IMG/VR virus record: IMGVR_UViG_2563366918_000005
Origin: a virus
Taxonomy: Duplodnaviria > Heunggongvirae > Uroviricota > Caudoviricetes
DNA length: 42,002 nt
Strand: one strand, 5' to 3'
Positions 3,973-36,568 of the stretch are shown here, piece after piece; the first letter of the stretch is position 1; each line of letters starts with the position of its first letter. A program made the translations under genes and the position numbers. Below the pieces are notes generated by a model, which was not told where the DNA came from, did no database searches, and worked only from the letters and a program-made list of their open reading frames with translations.

Positions 3973-6579
3973 TTATTTCCTGCAAACTCCAGATGATGTT
4001 AATCCATCAAAAATAACCTGCACTCTGGCAATAACAACATCAACTCCAGAAGTCGTTTCACTTGCATAACCAAGTTTTATTTTAGATACAATATCCTGAG
4101 TAAGTTCAGATATTTCAGTTTCTGCAATGTTACCAGAGGCCATGTGATTATCGTATGCCATAGAATGAATTCCATTATTGACATCGATTGAACTAGTATG
4201 TTTGTGAAAAATAGATGGGTTTACCTGAAACGAATTTGAACCGATAAGATCAGAATATACTCCATTCATCACTGCAGTACAGCGTGGAATATTATTATCG
4301 GTTATTGTCATATGCAGACGGTTACCAGTTAACCCCTCACCAAGTGTGACATAATACGCCAATTCTCCACCTGCATATTGTTTCCCCTCAACAATAACAG
4401 TAATCCCTCTTAATTTCTGATTAGCTAGCAAAAACTTATTACTGTCTATATAGCATTTATTTGCGGAACCAAAAACAGCCCCTTCTAAAATATCTGATGA
4501 ATAGGAATAAATAAGGTCACCTGAAACAAAGGAAAGAATATCAGATACGTTTCCTTTTTTAGATAAGTTAGGAGAATAGCTATTAACTATTTCATATTGT
4601 CCTGTGATAAAATCAAGGTAAACGCCATCAGTTTTCATCTCTTTAAAGAAAATGCTATTAAAGCATCCATCAAGAACCGGTGGATATATTCTAGAGCTTG
4701 CATAAGCTGTTGGGTGATTCTTATTATTACCACTACCAGGCGAATAAACATCTTCGTTAGTCATTGACTTTTTAAGCTTAACAGGAATCATCGGCTGCAT
4801 ATCAATTTTGCAGTTCCCTGAACCACCGATGCGAGGATAAAATAAACCACCAAACCTTACAATATTACTACTGAATAGTATTTCGTTATCGTTAAGTGTT
4901 ATCTCAACGAAGTTTCCAATAAGTTTAAATTCAACTGAAAACAAACCAAGTGGAGCAGATAATTTAACAATATTGCGCATAAAAACACCTACAGTCCCTG
5001 TTGATGCAGTATAGTGTGTGGTTTCAAAGGCAGAGCCTGTATATTTCAAGTTAATGAAATTATTATGGTATGAAGACAATTGAAATTGAATCCCAGAACT
5101 AAGGATTTCAATATCTACAAATTGAATCCTTACGGAGTAAGCATATGATAAATCTTCATATTCATAAGGCAATGTAACATCTTTTGAAATAGTTGCCCTC
5201 ACATAATTACCAGAAACCACATCAATCCCATCACGTACAGCATTAAAGTAACGATTAAAATCAATAAGCCCAGCGCCAACATACTGCGCATATGACCGAG
5301 TCCATCCTGCCATTGCGTTTCGTCCATTCTGAGCTTCTAAACTGCTAAATTCAGAGTCACTTGTGGTACTTGATGGGAGGATATTTGTACAAAAAATAAT
5401 TTCAGGCATTGAAGTAATATCATTCAGTTCAGCCATCAATTTAAAAAAAGTTTTCTGCGGGAAGTTACCAACATCCCAACCATCTCCGTCATTCATGCCA
5501 AAAGCAATAATAACAACATCAGGGTTAATATCACGAATGTAATCAATCCAGCGTCTGTTCGTGTCTGAATACCATGGGTACTGTGAGTTATAAGAAGTAA
5601 TTGCTGGTGTATCTTTTCCAAGGTCATAGTACCTCATTCCACCAATTGCTCTGTTAAATAAAGTAGAACTTGGGAATTTCTCTTGCAAAACTCTCTTAAG
5701 ATGAGCGGCAAAAATGCTTGATCGATCCACTGTGCTTATATTATATGGGGCACTTAAGCTGTCACCAACTAACACTATTTTTGAGTTAGGCCTTGATAAT
5801 CTCTCAAGTGTTTTAGATGTGACTAAACTGCAGGAATTAATGAACTGAGTACTATTTAGCATCTGTTCAAGTGTATCACCAAATCTGGTACCAACGTATG
5901 ATGATCCGTTGACACTTGCTAGCTTAAGGCATAAATCAGCAGTATCTGTAATTGAAAAAATAGGAACAGGACGTCCTAAACTGTCATACCCCTGAATTGA
6001 GTTTGCCCTAGAAGATGCTGATGCCATTTCGCTTACTATCTCAGGGAAGCGGAGTGTTTTAGATATGTTGCTGTTAATAACTCCTTTGATAGATGAGTCT
6101 GTATATTTCTTCGTGGAAGCGTCCTGAGGAAATAATGGATCATCAAGGTTACGAATACGATTGCCGAGTGCATCGTAGTAAGTGGCACTAAATGATGGTT
6201 TACGAAGAGCCAGCCGAGCCATGCTTTTGACTAACTGGATCAGCATCGTTAGCTTATCAAAAGCATCCTCATGCACTTCCGCAAAGAACTTACCCTGATT
6301 GCGCAGATCAGTTTCCTGTGTAACCGGTAGCTCTCGTGATATAGAAATCTTATAGCCATTGGCCAACGCCTTCGACAATATTACATTTCCACCATTGTAT
6401 CCTCCGGCCCCGGTAACTATATAATCAGTATCAAGAGTCAGTACGGTGATATTTTCATGAATATCAACAACCTGCACAATCAAATCAGATTTATTGAAAA
6501 CCCTAAAGGCATACGGAAACGATGTCGTAACGCCGTTACCGGTGTATTCGTTGTGGTCAACTTCGGTTGAGACCGTCAT
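3973..6579 (-). CDS. Tailspike/tail fibre protein with central SGNH (GDSL) esterase-like domain
   Basis: 868 aa; RBS GGAG 7 nt before ATG 6579; N-terminal motif YTGNGVTTSFPYAF; central KIVLVGDSLSAPYN and VIIAFGMNDGDG blocks of SGNH hydrolases; C-terminal Ser/Asn/Gly-rich region; distal two thirds look AT-rich. Confidence 0.7.
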   Translation of the reverse strand: MTVSTEVDHNEYTGNGVTTSFPYAFRVFNKSDLIVQVVDIHENITVLTLDTDYIVTGAGGYNGGNVILSKALANGYKISISRELPVTQETDLRNQGKFFAEVHEDAFDKLTMLIQLVKSMARLALRKPSFSATYYDALGNRIRNLDDPLFPQDASTKKYTDSSIKGVINSNISKTLRFPEIVSEMASASSRANSIQGYDSLGRPVPIFSITDTADLCLKLASVNGSSYVGTRFGDTLEQMLNSTQFINSCSLVTSKTLERLSRPNSKIVLVGDSLSAPYNISTVDRSSIFAAHLKRVLQEKFPSSTLFNRAIGGMRYYDLGKDTPAITSYNSQYPWYSDTNRRWIDYIRDINPDVVIIAFGMNDGDGWDVGNFPQKTFFKLMAELNDITSMPEIIFCTNILPSSTTSDSEFSSLEAQNGRNAMAGWTRSYAQYVGAGLIDFNRYFNAVRDGIDVVSGNYVRATISKDVTLPYEYEDLSYAYSVRIQFVDIEILSSGIQFQLSSYHNNFINLKYTGSAFETTHYTASTGTVGVFMRNIVKLSAPLGLFSVEFKLIGNFVEITLNDNEILFSSNIVRFGGLFYPRIGGSGNCKIDMQPMIPVKLKKSMTNEDVYSPGSGNNKNHPTAYASSRIYPPVLDGCFNSIFFKEMKTDGVYLDFITGQYEIVNSYSPNLSKKGNVSDILSFVSGDLIYSYSSDILEGAVFGSANKCYIDSNKFLLANQKLRGITVIVEGKQYAGGELAYYVTLGEGLTGNRLHMTITDNNIPRCTAVMNGVYSDLIGSNSFQVNPSIFHKHTSSIDVNNGIHSMAYDNHMASGNIAETEISELTQDIVSKIKLGYASETTSGVDVVIARVQVIFDGLTSSGVCRK

Positions 6580-6682: not shown

Positions 6683-6699
6683 ATTACCTTTATGGTAAT
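6683..6699. promoter_or_regulatory. Operator palindrome ATTACCTTTATGGTAAT
   Basis: Perfect 6-5-6 inverted repeat in the divergent tailspike / ant-like intergenic region. Confidence 0.5.
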
Positions 6700-6735: not shown

Positions 6736-6755
6736 TACTGTATAAATATACAGTT
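6736..6755. promoter_or_regulatory. LexA (SOS) box TACTGTATAAATATACAGTT
   Basis: Perfect CTGT-N8-ACAG with AT-rich spacer; about 20 bp upstream of RBS GGAG (6763-6766) and ATG 6775. Confidence 0.7.
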
Positions 6756-6774: not shown

Positions 6775-7032
6775 ATGCAGCGGTATCACTATCCACTGGA
6801 AGACGGATTTACCGAAAGGATTCACACGCCGGGAGGCGTCAGGTCACTGGTGGAGGGATCGCACTTGATGAAATTACTCCGGGATCTCGATAAGGATGGA
6901 TTTAATGTCGATGGCCCACTTGCCGAACTGACTGCACTGATTAACTACGTCACCAGCTCACAGATGTCTATGCGGGATCTGCAAACACATCTCGACTATT
7001 GTGCCGAACAATTACGAAAACAAACCAGATAA
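6775..7032 (+). CDS. Small antirepressor-like protein (standalone homolog of Ant C-terminal domain); SOS-controlled candidate
   Basis: 85 aa from ATG 6775; aligns by eye with the C-terminus of the 7347..8039 product (HTPGGVRSLVEGSHLMKLL…LRDLQTH versus HSPSGVLGLTENSLLMNLL…LRDIQTH); preceded by the LexA box. Confidence 0.6.
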   Translation: MQRYHYPLEDGFTERIHTPGGVRSLVEGSHLMKLLRDLDKDGFNVDGPLAELTALINYVTSSQMSMRDLQTHLDYCAEQLRKQTR

Positions 7033-7062
7033 GGTTTGCAATTACCAAGTGGAGTGCTTATA

Positions 7063-7079
7063 TTTACCTTTGAGGTAAA
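7063..7079. promoter_or_regulatory. Operator palindrome TTTACCTTTGAGGTAAA
   Basis: Perfect inverted repeat of the same family, between the two ant-like genes. Confidence 0.45.
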
Positions 7080-7171
7080 TTTACATCGCACTCCTCTTGT
7101 GCCATAGTAATCGGGCACTGGCAAAATCCAGTGCCGGGATTGGTCTCCCGGATTACTACAGAGGCACATAT

Positions 7172-7192
7172 GCCGCATAAGCGGTTTTTTTT
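7172..7192 (+). terminator. Putative rho-independent terminator
   Basis: CCGC-ATAA-GCGG stem followed by a T8 run; a further hairpin lies at about 7112-7144. Confidence 0.4.
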
Positions 7193-7346
7193 ATGTGTAA
7201 AGCGCACCTATTCTATGGTGGGCTGTGTGGGGGCACCGAAAGGTGCGCCGGGTTCCTTTGTAGCCGGTAAGACCAACTCTGCACAGTTCACCACCATCTG
7301 ATTGGTCTCAGCGGTGGTGATTAACCTAACTACAAAGGTGATCGCC

Positions 7347-8039
7347 ATGAATACCAAACCTTCCATCTTTTCCTTTGAGTCATCCTGCCAGATCCGTATG
7401 TTCATGATTGACGGAGAACCTTGGTTTGTCACCAAAGATGTGTGCAATGCTTTGAATATTGATGTTACACAAGCGAGAAAACTTGATAAAAAAGGCTGGA
7501 ACAAAAAGGGGCTGTATTCAATACAGACCCCTGGTGGAATACAAGAACTATCCATCGTTTCAGAATCAGGTCTCTACATCCTTATTCTGCGTTGCAAAGA
7601 GGCAATGACTGAGGGAACGAGAGCATTCAGATTTCTTGAATGGGTTACAGGCGAGGTTCTTCCTCAGATCCGCCGCACCGGAAGTTACATTAAAAACTCG
7701 CTACCGCAGGAAGAACGCATAAAGATGGTTGCCGACCAGGTAGCCAACGCCACGGCGTCAGCAGTAATGCAGGCGATGAAGATAGAGAACAAAACCTACA
7801 ACGCCCCGCTGAAGCCCGGCTACCGCAGCCTGATTCATTCCCCGTCTGGTGTTCTCGGCCTGACGGAGAACTCACTGCTGATGAATCTGCTGAACCAGTT
7901 ACAGGAAGACGGGCACGACGTATCGGGCGCGGCGGCGGAGCTGACCACCATGTTCTGCTACATCGTCGGTGTGAGCAAATGCCTGCGTGATATCCAGACG
8001 CACGCGGAGTACATCAACGACAAAGCAGGGTTCTTCTGA
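7347..8039 (+). CDS. Antirepressor (N-terminal BRO-N domain, C-terminal Ant/KilAC domain)
   Basis: RBS GGTGA 5 nt before ATG 7347; N-terminus FSFESSCQIRMFMIDGEPWFVTKDVCNALNI matches the BRO-N pattern; C-terminal domain paralogous to 6775..7032. Confidence 0.7.
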   Translation: MNTKPSIFSFESSCQIRMFMIDGEPWFVTKDVCNALNIDVTQARKLDKKGWNKKGLYSIQTPGGIQELSIVSESGLYILILRCKEAMTEGTRAFRFLEWVTGEVLPQIRRTGSYIKNSLPQEERIKMVADQVANATASAVMQAMKIENKTYNAPLKPGYRSLIHSPSGVLGLTENSLLMNLLNQLQEDGHDVSGAAAELTTMFCYIVGVSKCLRDIQTHAEYINDKAGFF

Positions 8040-8103: not shown

Positions 8104-8120
8104 ATTACCTCACGGGTGAT
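8104..8120. promoter_or_regulatory. Operator-like imperfect palindrome ATTACCTCACGGGTGAT
   Basis: Left half perfect, right half GGTGAT; lies upstream of the mini-ORF and the 8249 gene. Confidence 0.3.
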
Positions 8121-8248: not shown

Positions 8249-8788
8249 GTGTTAAGTGAAGAAATGCAATTTGCCATGGCTGTGGCTCAAATCGTAAGTG
8301 CAGTCGCGGTTTCGCTTGGCTTGTTCATAGCTATCGCTACTATTATTTATAATGTAAATACAGCGAGAAAAGTACACACTTCAGTATTCCTTGGTGAAAG
8401 CAGGTTTGATGTAGATTATAAGAAAGGCCTATCTACTATGCGCCGCATTCACGAATCGAACAAATCATTCCGCTCTTATATGTATCCAAGCAATGGGCAG
8501 GCTGATCTTACGGATGAAGAAAAGACAGAGAAGAGAGAAATAATTTACTGTCTAGGTTTCTACGAACGCATGGCTGTGAGCGTGAAGCGGAAAACTTATG
8601 ATGAGACCATGATTAAGGAAGTATTTTACAGCTCCGTTGTAAATAACTATCAGATTGCGCTACCTCTTATACAAGCCATTAGAGAAAAAGAAAACATAAA
8701 CACATATTTTAAAGAATATGAATGGTTGGCCACACGATGGAAGGATTGCCCATTGAAGGATAAATCCCCGTGGTACAAGTTTTGGTAA
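8249..8788 (+). CDS. Hypothetical membrane-anchored protein (AT-rich accessory gene; exclusion/defence candidate)
   Basis: RBS GGAGA 6 nt before GTG 8249 (alternative ATG 8264); N-terminal TM helix AVAQIVSAVAVSLGLFIAIATIIY then about 140-aa soluble domain; visibly AT-rich; followed by a terminator-like T-run at about 8789-8811. Confidence 0.55.
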   Translation: MLSEEMQFAMAVAQIVSAVAVSLGLFIAIATIIYNVNTARKVHTSVFLGESRFDVDYKKGLSTMRRIHESNKSFRSYMYPSNGQADLTDEEKTEKREIIYCLGFYERMAVSVKRKTYDETMIKEVFYSSVVNNYQIALPLIQAIREKENINTYFKEYEWLATRWKDCPLKDKSPWYKFW

Positions 8789-35729: not shown

Positions 35730-35746
35730 TTCACCCATAAGGTAAC
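35730..35746. promoter_or_regulatory. Operator (weak) TTCACCCATAAGGTAAC
   Basis: One mismatch in left half. Confidence 0.3.
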
Positions 35747-35760
35747 AAAAATCAAGGATA

Positions 35761-35777
35761 GTTACCTATGAGGTGCA
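35761..35777. promoter_or_regulatory. Operator GTTACCTATGAGGTGCA
   Basis: Left half matches family; right half degenerate. Confidence 0.35.
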
Positions 35778-35794
35778 TTTACCTGTTGGGTAAT
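35778..35794. promoter_or_regulatory. Operator palindrome TTTACCTGTTGGGTAAT
   Basis: Near-perfect; with the two adjacent sites forms an OR-like triple operator between cro-like and repressor genes. Confidence 0.5.
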
Positions 35795-35848: not shown

Positions 35849-36433
35849 ATGAAAAGTATCCAGGACGTCCGCAGGCAAAATCTCAACGACTTGATCGACC
35901 GTGAATTCAATGGTGTTCAGACGCGGATGGCAGAAAAACTTGGAACTCAGGCAAATCTGGTAAACCGCTGGGCTCTTGGCAAGAAGGTTATCGGCGACCA
36001 GGTTGCACGAAAAATTGAAGCTGCCGCCAATAAACCCCGTAACTGGCTTGATATTGATCGCTCGCTTTCTCAGGAGGGTTTTCAGCCTGTCGGCCCGAGC
36101 GATATAGGTCAGCTGGCGGCTCACAACCTGGAACGCTGGATGAGCGAAAGCCGCGACCTTTCAACGCAGGGAAAACTACACCGCGCATCCGGCGTCGCCC
36201 AGGTGACAATCAGCCGCCTGTTAAACAATGAGGTCAGCGTTTCCATTTCCACCCTGGAGAATGTTGCATCCGCATTCGGGCGTCACGGCTATGAATTACT
36301 GATTCACCCGCACGACCCTGCGACCATCAACTATGATCGCTCGCGCTACGCATTGTTACCCGAAACCGAGAAAGCAAAGATCGAAAGTTACATTGAATTT
36401 GTCATCAACCAGAACGAAAAAAACAAACAATAA
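35849..36433 (+). CDS. Immunity repressor candidate with two HTH domains, no peptidase domain
   Basis: 194 aa; HTH-like segments (…QTRMAEKLGTQANLVNRWALGKK… and …LHRASGVAQVTISRLLNNE…); no Ala-Gly / Ser-Lys autocleavage module seen; sits between operator clusters. Confidence 0.6.
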   Translation: MKSIQDVRRQNLNDLIDREFNGVQTRMAEKLGTQANLVNRWALGKKVIGDQVARKIEAAANKPRNWLDIDRSLSQEGFQPVGPSDIGQLAAHNLERWMSESRDLSTQGKLHRASGVAQVTISRLLNNEVSVSISTLENVASAFGRHGYELLIHPHDPATINYDRSRYALLPETEKAKIESYIEFVINQNEKNKQ

Positions 36434-36552: not shown

Positions 36553-36568
36553 TTACCTCAACGGTAAC
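36552..36568. promoter_or_regulatory. Operator ATTACCTCAACGGTAAC
   Basis: Overlaps the -10 / +1 of the PL-like promoter. Confidence 0.45.

Follow-up and report, generated by a model that had tools for sequence, protein, structure and literature searches.

Two paralogous antirepressors sharing an Ant-like domain in an Escherichia coli Uetakevirus prophage, one linked to a LexA box and one preceded by a predicted IsrK/C4 RNA switch

In the immI operons of phages P1 and P7, the sites a1/b1 are followed by c4 and then by the sites a2/b2, which lie over the ribosome-binding site; the operon reportedly comprises the c4 antisense RNA, icd and ant. For SPC32H, a Salmonella Uetakevirus, the gene ant is reportedly under LexA control, and its tetrameric product Ant is said to disassemble the repressor Rep. 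The studies concerned are said to be those of Citron & Schuster (1990) and Heinrich et al. (1995) for P1 and P7, of Kim & Ryu (J Virol, 2013) and Kim et al. (PNAS, 2016) for SPC32H, and, as primary studies of N15, of Mardanov & Ravin (2007) and Ravin et al. (1999). In Gifsy-1, translation of AnrP, the antirepressor encoded downstream, is activated by IsrK in trans, and induction in stationary phase depends on this RNA (Hershko-Shalev et al. 2016, PMC4825925). N15 has an SOS-regulated AntC and an immA operon (antA-icd-antB) under a small processed RNA (as summarised in PMC4488713 and PMC3121763). Here, we analyse two adjacent genes of the virus record IMGVR_UViG_2563366918_000005 (42,002 nucleotides (nt), the whole of which is called “the window”), which code for a small antirepressor and for a longer one with an N-terminal BRO-N domain.

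E. coli chromosomes match the window at 100% identity, with yfgI/pdeF as the neighbours of the prophage, which is a phiV10/epsilon15-like prophage of E. coli (genus Uetakevirus). Both antirepressor open reading frames (ORFs) are flanked by the tailspike gene (3973-6579, minus strand) on one side and by the block of virion-protein genes on the other; in phiV10/epsilon15-like phages, this slot contains regulatory as well as cargo genes. The best explanation, which we favour with moderate confidence, is that the two antirepressors have one Rep-binding Ant fold in common and are governed by two control circuits, including a commitment loop. The homology, the RNA elements, their complementarity and covariation, and the co-occurrence with Rep were computed in this study. 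The protein-coding features and the LexA box are as follows (aa, amino acids).

6736..6755, no strand: LexA box TACTGTATAAATATACAGTT, with the core CTGT-N8-ACAG at 6738-6753
6775..7032, plus strand: small standalone antirepressor of 85 aa, orthologue of SPC32H Ant (homology to 5D50_E)
7347..8039, plus strand: BRO-N/Ant-like fusion antirepressor of 230 aa (Pfam Bro-N and homology to 5D50_E)
35849..36433, plus strand: prophage repressor Rep, presumed common target of both antirepressors (homology to 5D50_A)

Both antirepressor ORFs are intact in the window and are annotated as coding in RefSeq. With BLASTP, residues 2-75 of the small protein align without gaps to residues 149-222 of the fusion, with 32 identities in 74 positions (43%) and an E-value of 8e-17. 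Both proteins match chain E of Protein Data Bank (PDB) entry 5D50, the antirepressor Ant of SPC32H (E=3.5e-46 and 87% identity for the small protein, E=4.9e-14 for residues 149-225 of the fusion), as well as PHROG 450 (E=1e-47 and E=3e-37, respectively). When nine standalone and seven fused homologues are aligned, 16 columns of the alignment show no variation. By these comparisons, the two domains are paralogous, and there is virtually no chance that their similarity reflects coincidence or low complexity, which the E-value, the shared PDB chain and PHROG family, the invariant columns and the fold match to 5D50 described below refute. A by-eye alignment of the two C-domains in the first-pass annotation is thus borne out, with one change: the shared stretch comprises about 74-82 aa rather than the ~65 aa claimed. 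No Pfam or NCBIfam model matches the Ant-like domain when both libraries are scanned; a DUF724 match of the small protein was disregarded, as it is far under its cut-off.

An AlphaFold model of the C-terminal 89 aa of the fusion has a predicted local distance difference test score (pLDDT) of 79, and a search of the PDB with this model retrieves solely the Ant chains of 5D50 (G, E and H) with a probability of 1.00, TM scores of 0.58-0.74 and a root-mean-square deviation of ~3 Å. The model of the full-length fusion is modest (pLDDT 66.6); its PDB search missed 5D50 and returned weak, BRO-N-like resemblances to SKI/Dachshund, baculovirus Orf22-N and Mbp1 folds (E>=0.025).

Standalone and fused domains form separate clades. 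Identities are 61-85% within the standalone and 49-98% within the fused group, and 35-46% between the groups, which differ by fixed residues at five switch positions. We conclude that the duplication is old and that both lineages were kept. A third copy of the Ant-like domain was not found within the window; TL-2011b and HEMP4 each have a third place that matches the domain.

The presumed common target is the product of 35849-36433, which matches the SPC32H repressor Rep (PDB 5D50_A) over residues 1-190 with E=4e-42 and is 100% identical to the repressors of phiV10 and ZX5. In a survey of 50,697 phage records, the Ant-like domain was found in 34-35 and full-length Rep homologues in 36, and the two sets consist of the same phages, of Escherichia, Salmonella, Klebsiella and Enterobacter. 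That they co-occur so strictly argues for Rep being the partner of the two Ant-like domains. Of 5,426 complete E. coli genomes, 537 contain rep, 529 the small ant and 470 the fused Ant-like domain; the latter corresponds to 470 of the ~537 genomes with this rep. The target and the small antirepressor diverge at different rates: between SPC32H and the window, the small Ant is 87% identical and Rep only 43% (52% in the N-domain and 39% in the C-domain), and the small Ant evolves much more slowly than its target when E. coli and Salmonella phages are compared.

The small gene is preceded by a perfect LexA box, CTGTATAAATATACAG (6738-6753, CTGT-N8-ACAG), 22 base pairs (bp) ahead of its start codon, in agreement with the first-pass annotation. 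CTGT and ACAG are invariant and the spacer is variable in five phages (window, phiV10, TL-2011b, Tyrion and SPC32H). A further perfect CTGT-N8-ACAG is found at 21624; its spacer is rich in GC, and we attribute it to chance. A convincing sigma-70 promoter for the small ant was not found by eye or by a consensus scan. SPC32H-type standalone Ant proteins are characterised by a length of ~86 aa and a LexA box in the promoter region, and the small protein, with 85 aa and the box at 6738-6753, fits this description. The fused protein does not; it is a 230-aa fusion, and the sole near LexA core in its leader, at 7223, has one mismatch and lies inside the C4 RNA described below. Prophages of the genus Uetakevirus are inducible by a DNA-damaging microcin (bioRxiv 10.64898/2026.05.26.727859).

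The fusion consists of a Bro-N domain (Pfam PF02498, aa 16-106, 7392-7664; 51.5 bits versus a cut-off of 25.6) and the Ant-like domain (aa 149-225, 7791-8021). The ratio of nonsynonymous to synonymous substitution rates (dN/dS) is ~0.06 for the small ant compared with SPC32H and Tyrion; for the fusion compared with Tyrion it is 0.18 overall and 0.27 in the Ant-like part. Both genes are thus under purifying selection and neither is a pseudogene in the window, a point on which the first-pass annotation had made its proposal depend. ORF4 of ZX5 is 80% identical to the fusion, with ~60% in BRO-N and ~99% from residue 104 on; in these alignments, BRO-N variants are exchanged ahead of a nearly constant C-terminal half. 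A profile search for further Ant-like architectures kept the BRO-N columns (230 positions), and BRO-N matches dominate its results; the informative proteins are P0243, P0248, P0257, P0316, P0244 and P0251. P0248 (216 aa) combines an AntA-domain N-terminus with a C-terminus of 80 residues identical to the Ant-like domain of the window, showing that the domain is shuffled between different antirepressor N-termini.

In ZX5, which has an identical Rep and the same order of small ant, IsrK, C4 and BRO-ant, overexpressing ORF4 brought prophage counts down from 1e9 to 1e6, and the repressor gene was transcribed less (PMC9782041). The evidence for lytic promotion by this antirepressor comes from ZX5, that for Ant-Rep binding from SPC32H, and that for activation of the downstream antirepressor by IsrK from Gifsy-1.

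The two genes are separated by 314 bp, which contain a promoter, a palindrome and two predicted RNAs with the following coordinates.

7036..7064, plus strand: putative sigma-70-like promoter TTGCAA-17-TATATT for the IsrK/C4/BRO-ant transcript (consensus scan, position only)
7064..7078, no strand: operator-type palindrome TTACCTTTGAGGTAA, overlapping the -10 hexamer and the transcription start of the predicted promoter
7115..7191, plus strand: IsrK-type RNA with its own terminator (Rfam RF01394, 74.7 bits, gathering score 50)
7211..7298, plus strand: C4 antisense RNA (Rfam RF01695, 78.6 bits, gathering score 45)
7302..7338, plus strand: C4 target sites in the ant leader, TTGGTCT at 7302-7308 and CTACAAAGG at 7330-7338 (exact 7-nt and 9-nt complements)

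The C4 RNA has two antisense elements, the hairpin loop CCTTTGTAG (7255-7263) and the single-stranded AGACCAA (7270-7276). The former is the exact complement of CTACAAAGG at 7330-7338, overlapping the Shine-Dalgarno sequence AAGGTGA (7335-7341) of the fused gene, and the latter is complementary to TTGGTCT at 7302-7308. IsrK, whose terminator (7172-7193) is formed by a stem at 7172-7185 and a subsequent T run, contains a1/b1-like sites that are also complementary to C4, i.e. TTGGTCT (7140-7146) and CTACAGAGG (7156-7164), the latter with one G-U pair. The leader RNA is predicted to fold much more stably than shuffled versions of it (z=-5.6). In each of the window, phiV10, TL-2011b, Tyrion and ZX5, IsrK and C4 exceed their Rfam gathering scores and lie immediately ahead of BRO-ant; both are absent from SPC32H, as is the BRO-ant gene.

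Two specificity types can be distinguished. The window and Tyrion represent type I, and phiV10, TL-2011b and ZX5 represent type II, in which the C4 elements are CCTTTTAG and ACGCCAA and the sites are CTAAAAGG and TTGGCGT both in the leader and in IsrK. This three-way covariation of C4, IsrK and leader is strong evidence that the pairings are functional. The second input of the fused copy would thus be an RNA switch of the P1-immI or Gifsy-1-isrK type, layered on repressor control, rather than a simple operator. The first-pass annotation had proposed a two-input module, with one copy answering to SOS and the other to the phage repressor; its paralogous pair and LexA box were confirmed, and the predicted main control of the fused copy by IsrK and C4 had been missed.

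Several short ORFs overlie the RNAs. At 7131-7301, the window has an ORF of 56 aa from GTG at 7131 and a 28-aa version from ATG at 7214, which may correspond to orf45 of Gifsy-1; the frame is not conserved in type II, and the stop lies 46 nt before the ant start codon. In the GenBank record of ZX5, a coding sequence for a 37-aa “ash family protein” (1956-2069) is placed atop the C4 RNA and is probably a spurious gene call. TL-2011b has an insertion of ~1.1 kb (4280-5368) between the small ant and the IsrK promoter, by which the -35 region is replaced and the operator palindrome is kept.

The palindrome at 7064 is one of a family of 15 TTACC-N5-GGTAA sites (<=1 mismatch) in the window, where chance would give 0.73: 3659, 6684, 7064, 8105, 25637, 26254, 29933, 29951, 33410, 33472, 35394, 35731, 35779, 36491 and 36553. 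Two further features of this family are relevant here.

6684..6698, no strand: operator-type palindrome TTACCTTTATGGTAA ahead of the small ant, in the region between this gene and the divergent tailspike gene
35731..35793, no strand: cluster of operator-type palindromes (sites at 35731 and 35779) between a cro-like gene and rep

A TTGACA promoter just after rep has a palindrome at 36553, in the same layout as at 7064. The clustering between the cro-like gene and rep, together with the site at this promoter, is the pattern expected of a Rep operator, and the set is probably the Rep operator network. Spread over the prophage, the sites precede several transcription units, which is reminiscent of the dispersed C1 operators of P1. 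At 7064-7078, the half-sites are conserved and the spacer is variable in phiV10, TL-2011b and Tyrion. The palindrome at 6684-6698 is a perfect family member 40 bp upstream of the LexA box and is kept in phiV10, TL-2011b, Tyrion and SPC32H. The operator palindrome that the first-pass annotation had assigned to the fused copy is therefore real and overlaps the predicted promoter, and it is not exclusive to this copy.

These elements can be combined into the following scheme. In a lysogen, host LexA would keep the small ant off. DNA damage would remove LexA, and the small Ant, by analogy with its SPC32H orthologue, would bind the C-terminal domains of the Rep tetramer and strip Rep off its operators. 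The promoter of the fused gene appears to be overlapped by a Rep-type operator, and its transcript would yield IsrK first, ending at the terminator of this RNA, whereas read-through transcripts would include C4 and the fused ant gene. The C4 loops are predicted to pair with the two leader sites, one of them over the Shine-Dalgarno sequence, and to block translation; IsrK, bearing copies of both sites, could titrate C4. The fused gene would thereby be double-locked in a lysogen, with Rep acting on the promoter and C4 on the ribosome-binding site. Once Rep is removed, e.g. by the SOS-induced small Ant, the IsrK promoter would open, IsrK would outnumber C4, and the freed translation of BRO-Ant would reinforce the inactivation of Rep in a commitment loop. 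This feedback logic, like the binding of BRO-Ant to Rep via its C-domain, is what we infer from the arrangement. Upon infection of a naive cell, the cassette might delay the establishment of repression and shape the lysis-lysogeny decision.

No terminator lies between the small ant and the IsrK region; the two inputs may thus form a cascade and not be independent, and SOS transcription of the small ant may read into IsrK and feed the C4 decoy directly. An alternative is an independent second induction input, i.e. the two-input idea of the first-pass annotation with the RNA switch as the sensor: IsrK would become more abundant without SOS, in stationary phase or at low Mg2+ or low Fe2+, release BRO-Ant and induce the prophage without DNA damage. 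In Gifsy-1, the prophage needs IsrK to be induced in stationary-phase minimal medium, and several stresses alter the level of this RNA (PMC4825925); the isrK-C4 arrangement is present in the window too, and ZX5 lysogens spontaneously release 1e7 plaque-forming units/mL. However, with a Rep-type operator over the IsrK promoter, IsrK and ant mRNA should be low in a stable lysogen unless Rep is removed first, and we consider an independent input unlikely.

The occurrence of two C4/IsrK types among phages with 100% identical Rep leads to the prediction of P1/P7-like heteroimmunity among E. coli Uetakeviruses. For a superinfecting phage, the C4 RNA of the resident would act as a secondary immunity of defined specificity, which would differ between phages with identical Rep as in P1 and P7. 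One could accordingly view the fused protein as mainly an anti-immunity weapon, by which a superinfecting phage inactivates the Rep of a resident Uetakevirus with a different C4 type in the manner of P1/P7 heteroimmunity, and which may also act on diverged Reps, a cross-talk as with the Gifsy antirepressors. Apart from the two types, this view can draw on the age and distinctness of the two Ant clades, on the name “putative anti-immunity protein” given to the gene by the phiV10 authors, and on documented cases of antirepressors that act on non-cognate repressors (PMC3121763). ZX5 ORF4, however, acts on its own phage, and the proposal is compatible with the two-circuit explanation and largely a consequence of it; as a rival, it appears distinctly unlikely.

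A more far-reaching version of the two-circuit explanation can be put forward tentatively, with considerably less confidence than the explanation itself. Uetakeviruses might have a P1/P7-style tripartite immunity with at least two C4/IsrK classes for one and the same Rep, in which a superinfecting phage of the other class would express BRO-Ant unchecked and induce the resident, SOS read-through might couple damage to the second antirepressor, and a single duplicated domain would have given rise to a two-stage, self-reinforcing switch.

Several points weigh against the two-circuit explanation. The functions of the promoter and of the operator at the fused gene, and the binding of BRO-Ant to Rep via its C-domain, are predictions from sequence, and the ZX5 ORF4 experiment was one of overexpression. 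With identities of 35-46% between the clades and five switch positions, the targets or affinities of the two domains could differ. The Rfam model RF03163 (c4-a1b1) reaches 39.9 bits over 7102-7154, under its gathering score of 46.7. A conserved leader ORF like icd of P1 or orf45 of Gifsy-1 is not evident, as frame and length differ between types I and II, and the translational coupling that is needed in both model systems may therefore not apply. In phiV10, the BRO-Ant gene (4746-5425) is frameshifted within the Ant-like domain, which leaves one ORF of 194 aa, whose tail is out of frame, and another of 29 aa corresponding to the last 29 residues of the window fusion; this is a frameshift or possibly a sequencing error. 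PhiV10 is a viable, temperate type phage, which indicates that the fused gene is accessory or dispensable. In addition, all 12 Salmonella Uetakevirus records lack the fused copy and have the small Ant only, with no IsrK/C4, and some E. coli phages, e.g. PAS61, lack the fused copy as well.

The phiV10 frameshift and these absences could be taken to mean that the fused gene plays no part in the switch and is merely carried along as a dispensable passenger, or is a duplicate in decay, and its location in a variable cargo slot beside a DUF4760 gene would be in line with this. Such a fate is difficult to reconcile with the dN/dS values given above, with intact homologues that are 66-99% identical across five genera (Escherichia, Salmonella, Klebsiella, Citrobacter and Enterobacter), with RNA regulators that co-vary with their targets and with the overexpression phenotype in ZX5. 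We regard it as very improbable, and retain the two-circuit explanation.

Some further features of the window were noted. The DUF4760 gene (8249-8788), which follows the BRO-ant gene in the same variable slot, is cargo, and a degenerate copy of the operator palindrome (8105-8119) lies ahead of it. The prophage encodes a tRNA-Arg (anticodon TCT, 25974-26050) with operator-type palindromes on both sides, at 25637 and 26254. An IS200-like transposase gene (1219-1810), with an STnc490 RNA (146 bits) at its 5′ end, is located between the prophage lysis genes and yfgI.

Genomes with one SOS-controlled and one RNA-controlled antirepressor are already known (AntC and immA in N15; GfoA and IsrK/AnrP in Gifsy-1), and each half of the present locus has been studied separately before, in SPC32H and in ZX5. 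The new aspect appears to be that both antirepressors share one repressor-binding domain. In the searchable literature, we found no description of two antirepressors sharing such a domain as here, of the BRO protein of ZX5 and phiV10 as a fusion of the SPC32H Ant fold, or of co-varying specificity types in its C4/IsrK control. The ZX5 study itself is silent on the small Ant, the RNAs, LexA and any homology to Ant of SPC32H, and the words “SPC32H” and “LexA” do not occur in it (PMC9782041). The locus connects two unlinked lines of work, the structurally solved Ant-Rep mechanism of SPC32H and the BRO-N “anti-repressor” of E. coli Uetakeviruses such as ZX5 and phiV10, and it provides a mechanistic hypothesis for the latter, in which the C-terminal domain would be the Rep-binding module. 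Prophages of this kind are present in ~10% of complete E. coli genomes, and the rules of their induction and cross-immunity are therefore relevant to gut and pathogen strains.

The closest relative of the small gene is ant of SPC32H (PDB 5D50 and 5D4Z), with which the window shares the small Ant (87% identity), Rep (43%), the place beside the tailspike gene, the LexA box and the upstream palindrome. In SPC32H, however, the small Ant stands alone; convergent virion genes follow ant directly, and IsrK, C4 and BRO-ant are all missing. Compared with it, the window adds a second, fused paralogue under predicted RNA control. ZX5 (vB_EcoP_ZX5, Li et al. 2022, PMC9782041) has in ORF4 an “anti-repressor” orthologous to the product of 7347-8039, but its C4/IsrK pair is of the other specificity type (II).

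The arrangement ahead of the fused gene resembles the P1/P7 immI operon in having a putative promoter with a predicted operator for the primary repressor, candidate a1/b1 sites upstream, a C4 RNA whose two antisense elements are complementary to sites at and near the ribosome-binding site of ant, and specificity types that differ between phages having the same primary repressor. It differs in four respects. The window has no conserved icd-like ORF, and the ORFs over C4 stop at 7301, with 46 nt left to the ant start; the ribosome-binding site of ant itself appears to be the target of C4; the upstream sites form part of an IsrK RNA with its own terminator; and the Ant-like C-domain has no match in P1 and is confined to the 34-35 Rep-carrying records.

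N15 likewise carries one LexA-controlled and one RNA-controlled anti-immunity antirepressor per genome, but the two loci are separate, in contrast to the adjacent paralogous genes of the window, and N15 was not retrieved in the search for the Ant-like domain. In Gifsy-1 (isrK-orf45(STnc1160)-anrP), the order is also IsrK, C4 and then an antirepressor ~50 nt downstream, and this prophage, too, has a small SOS-controlled antirepressor, the LexA-controlled GfoA (Lemire et al. 2011, PMC3121763). Homology of BRO-Ant to AnrP (STM2616) was rejected (best BLASTP E=3.4), and the orf45 coupling is not conserved in the window. The IsrK/C4 pair is widespread in Shiga toxin (Stx), APSE and other phages and precedes unrelated antirepressors, AnrP in Gifsy-1 and BRO-Ant in the window. 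It thus looks like a portable regulatory front end, here joined to an effector domain that would match the local repressor; the two antirepressors of Gifsy-1 are not presented as paralogues by its authors, whereas the pair in the window shares one domain.

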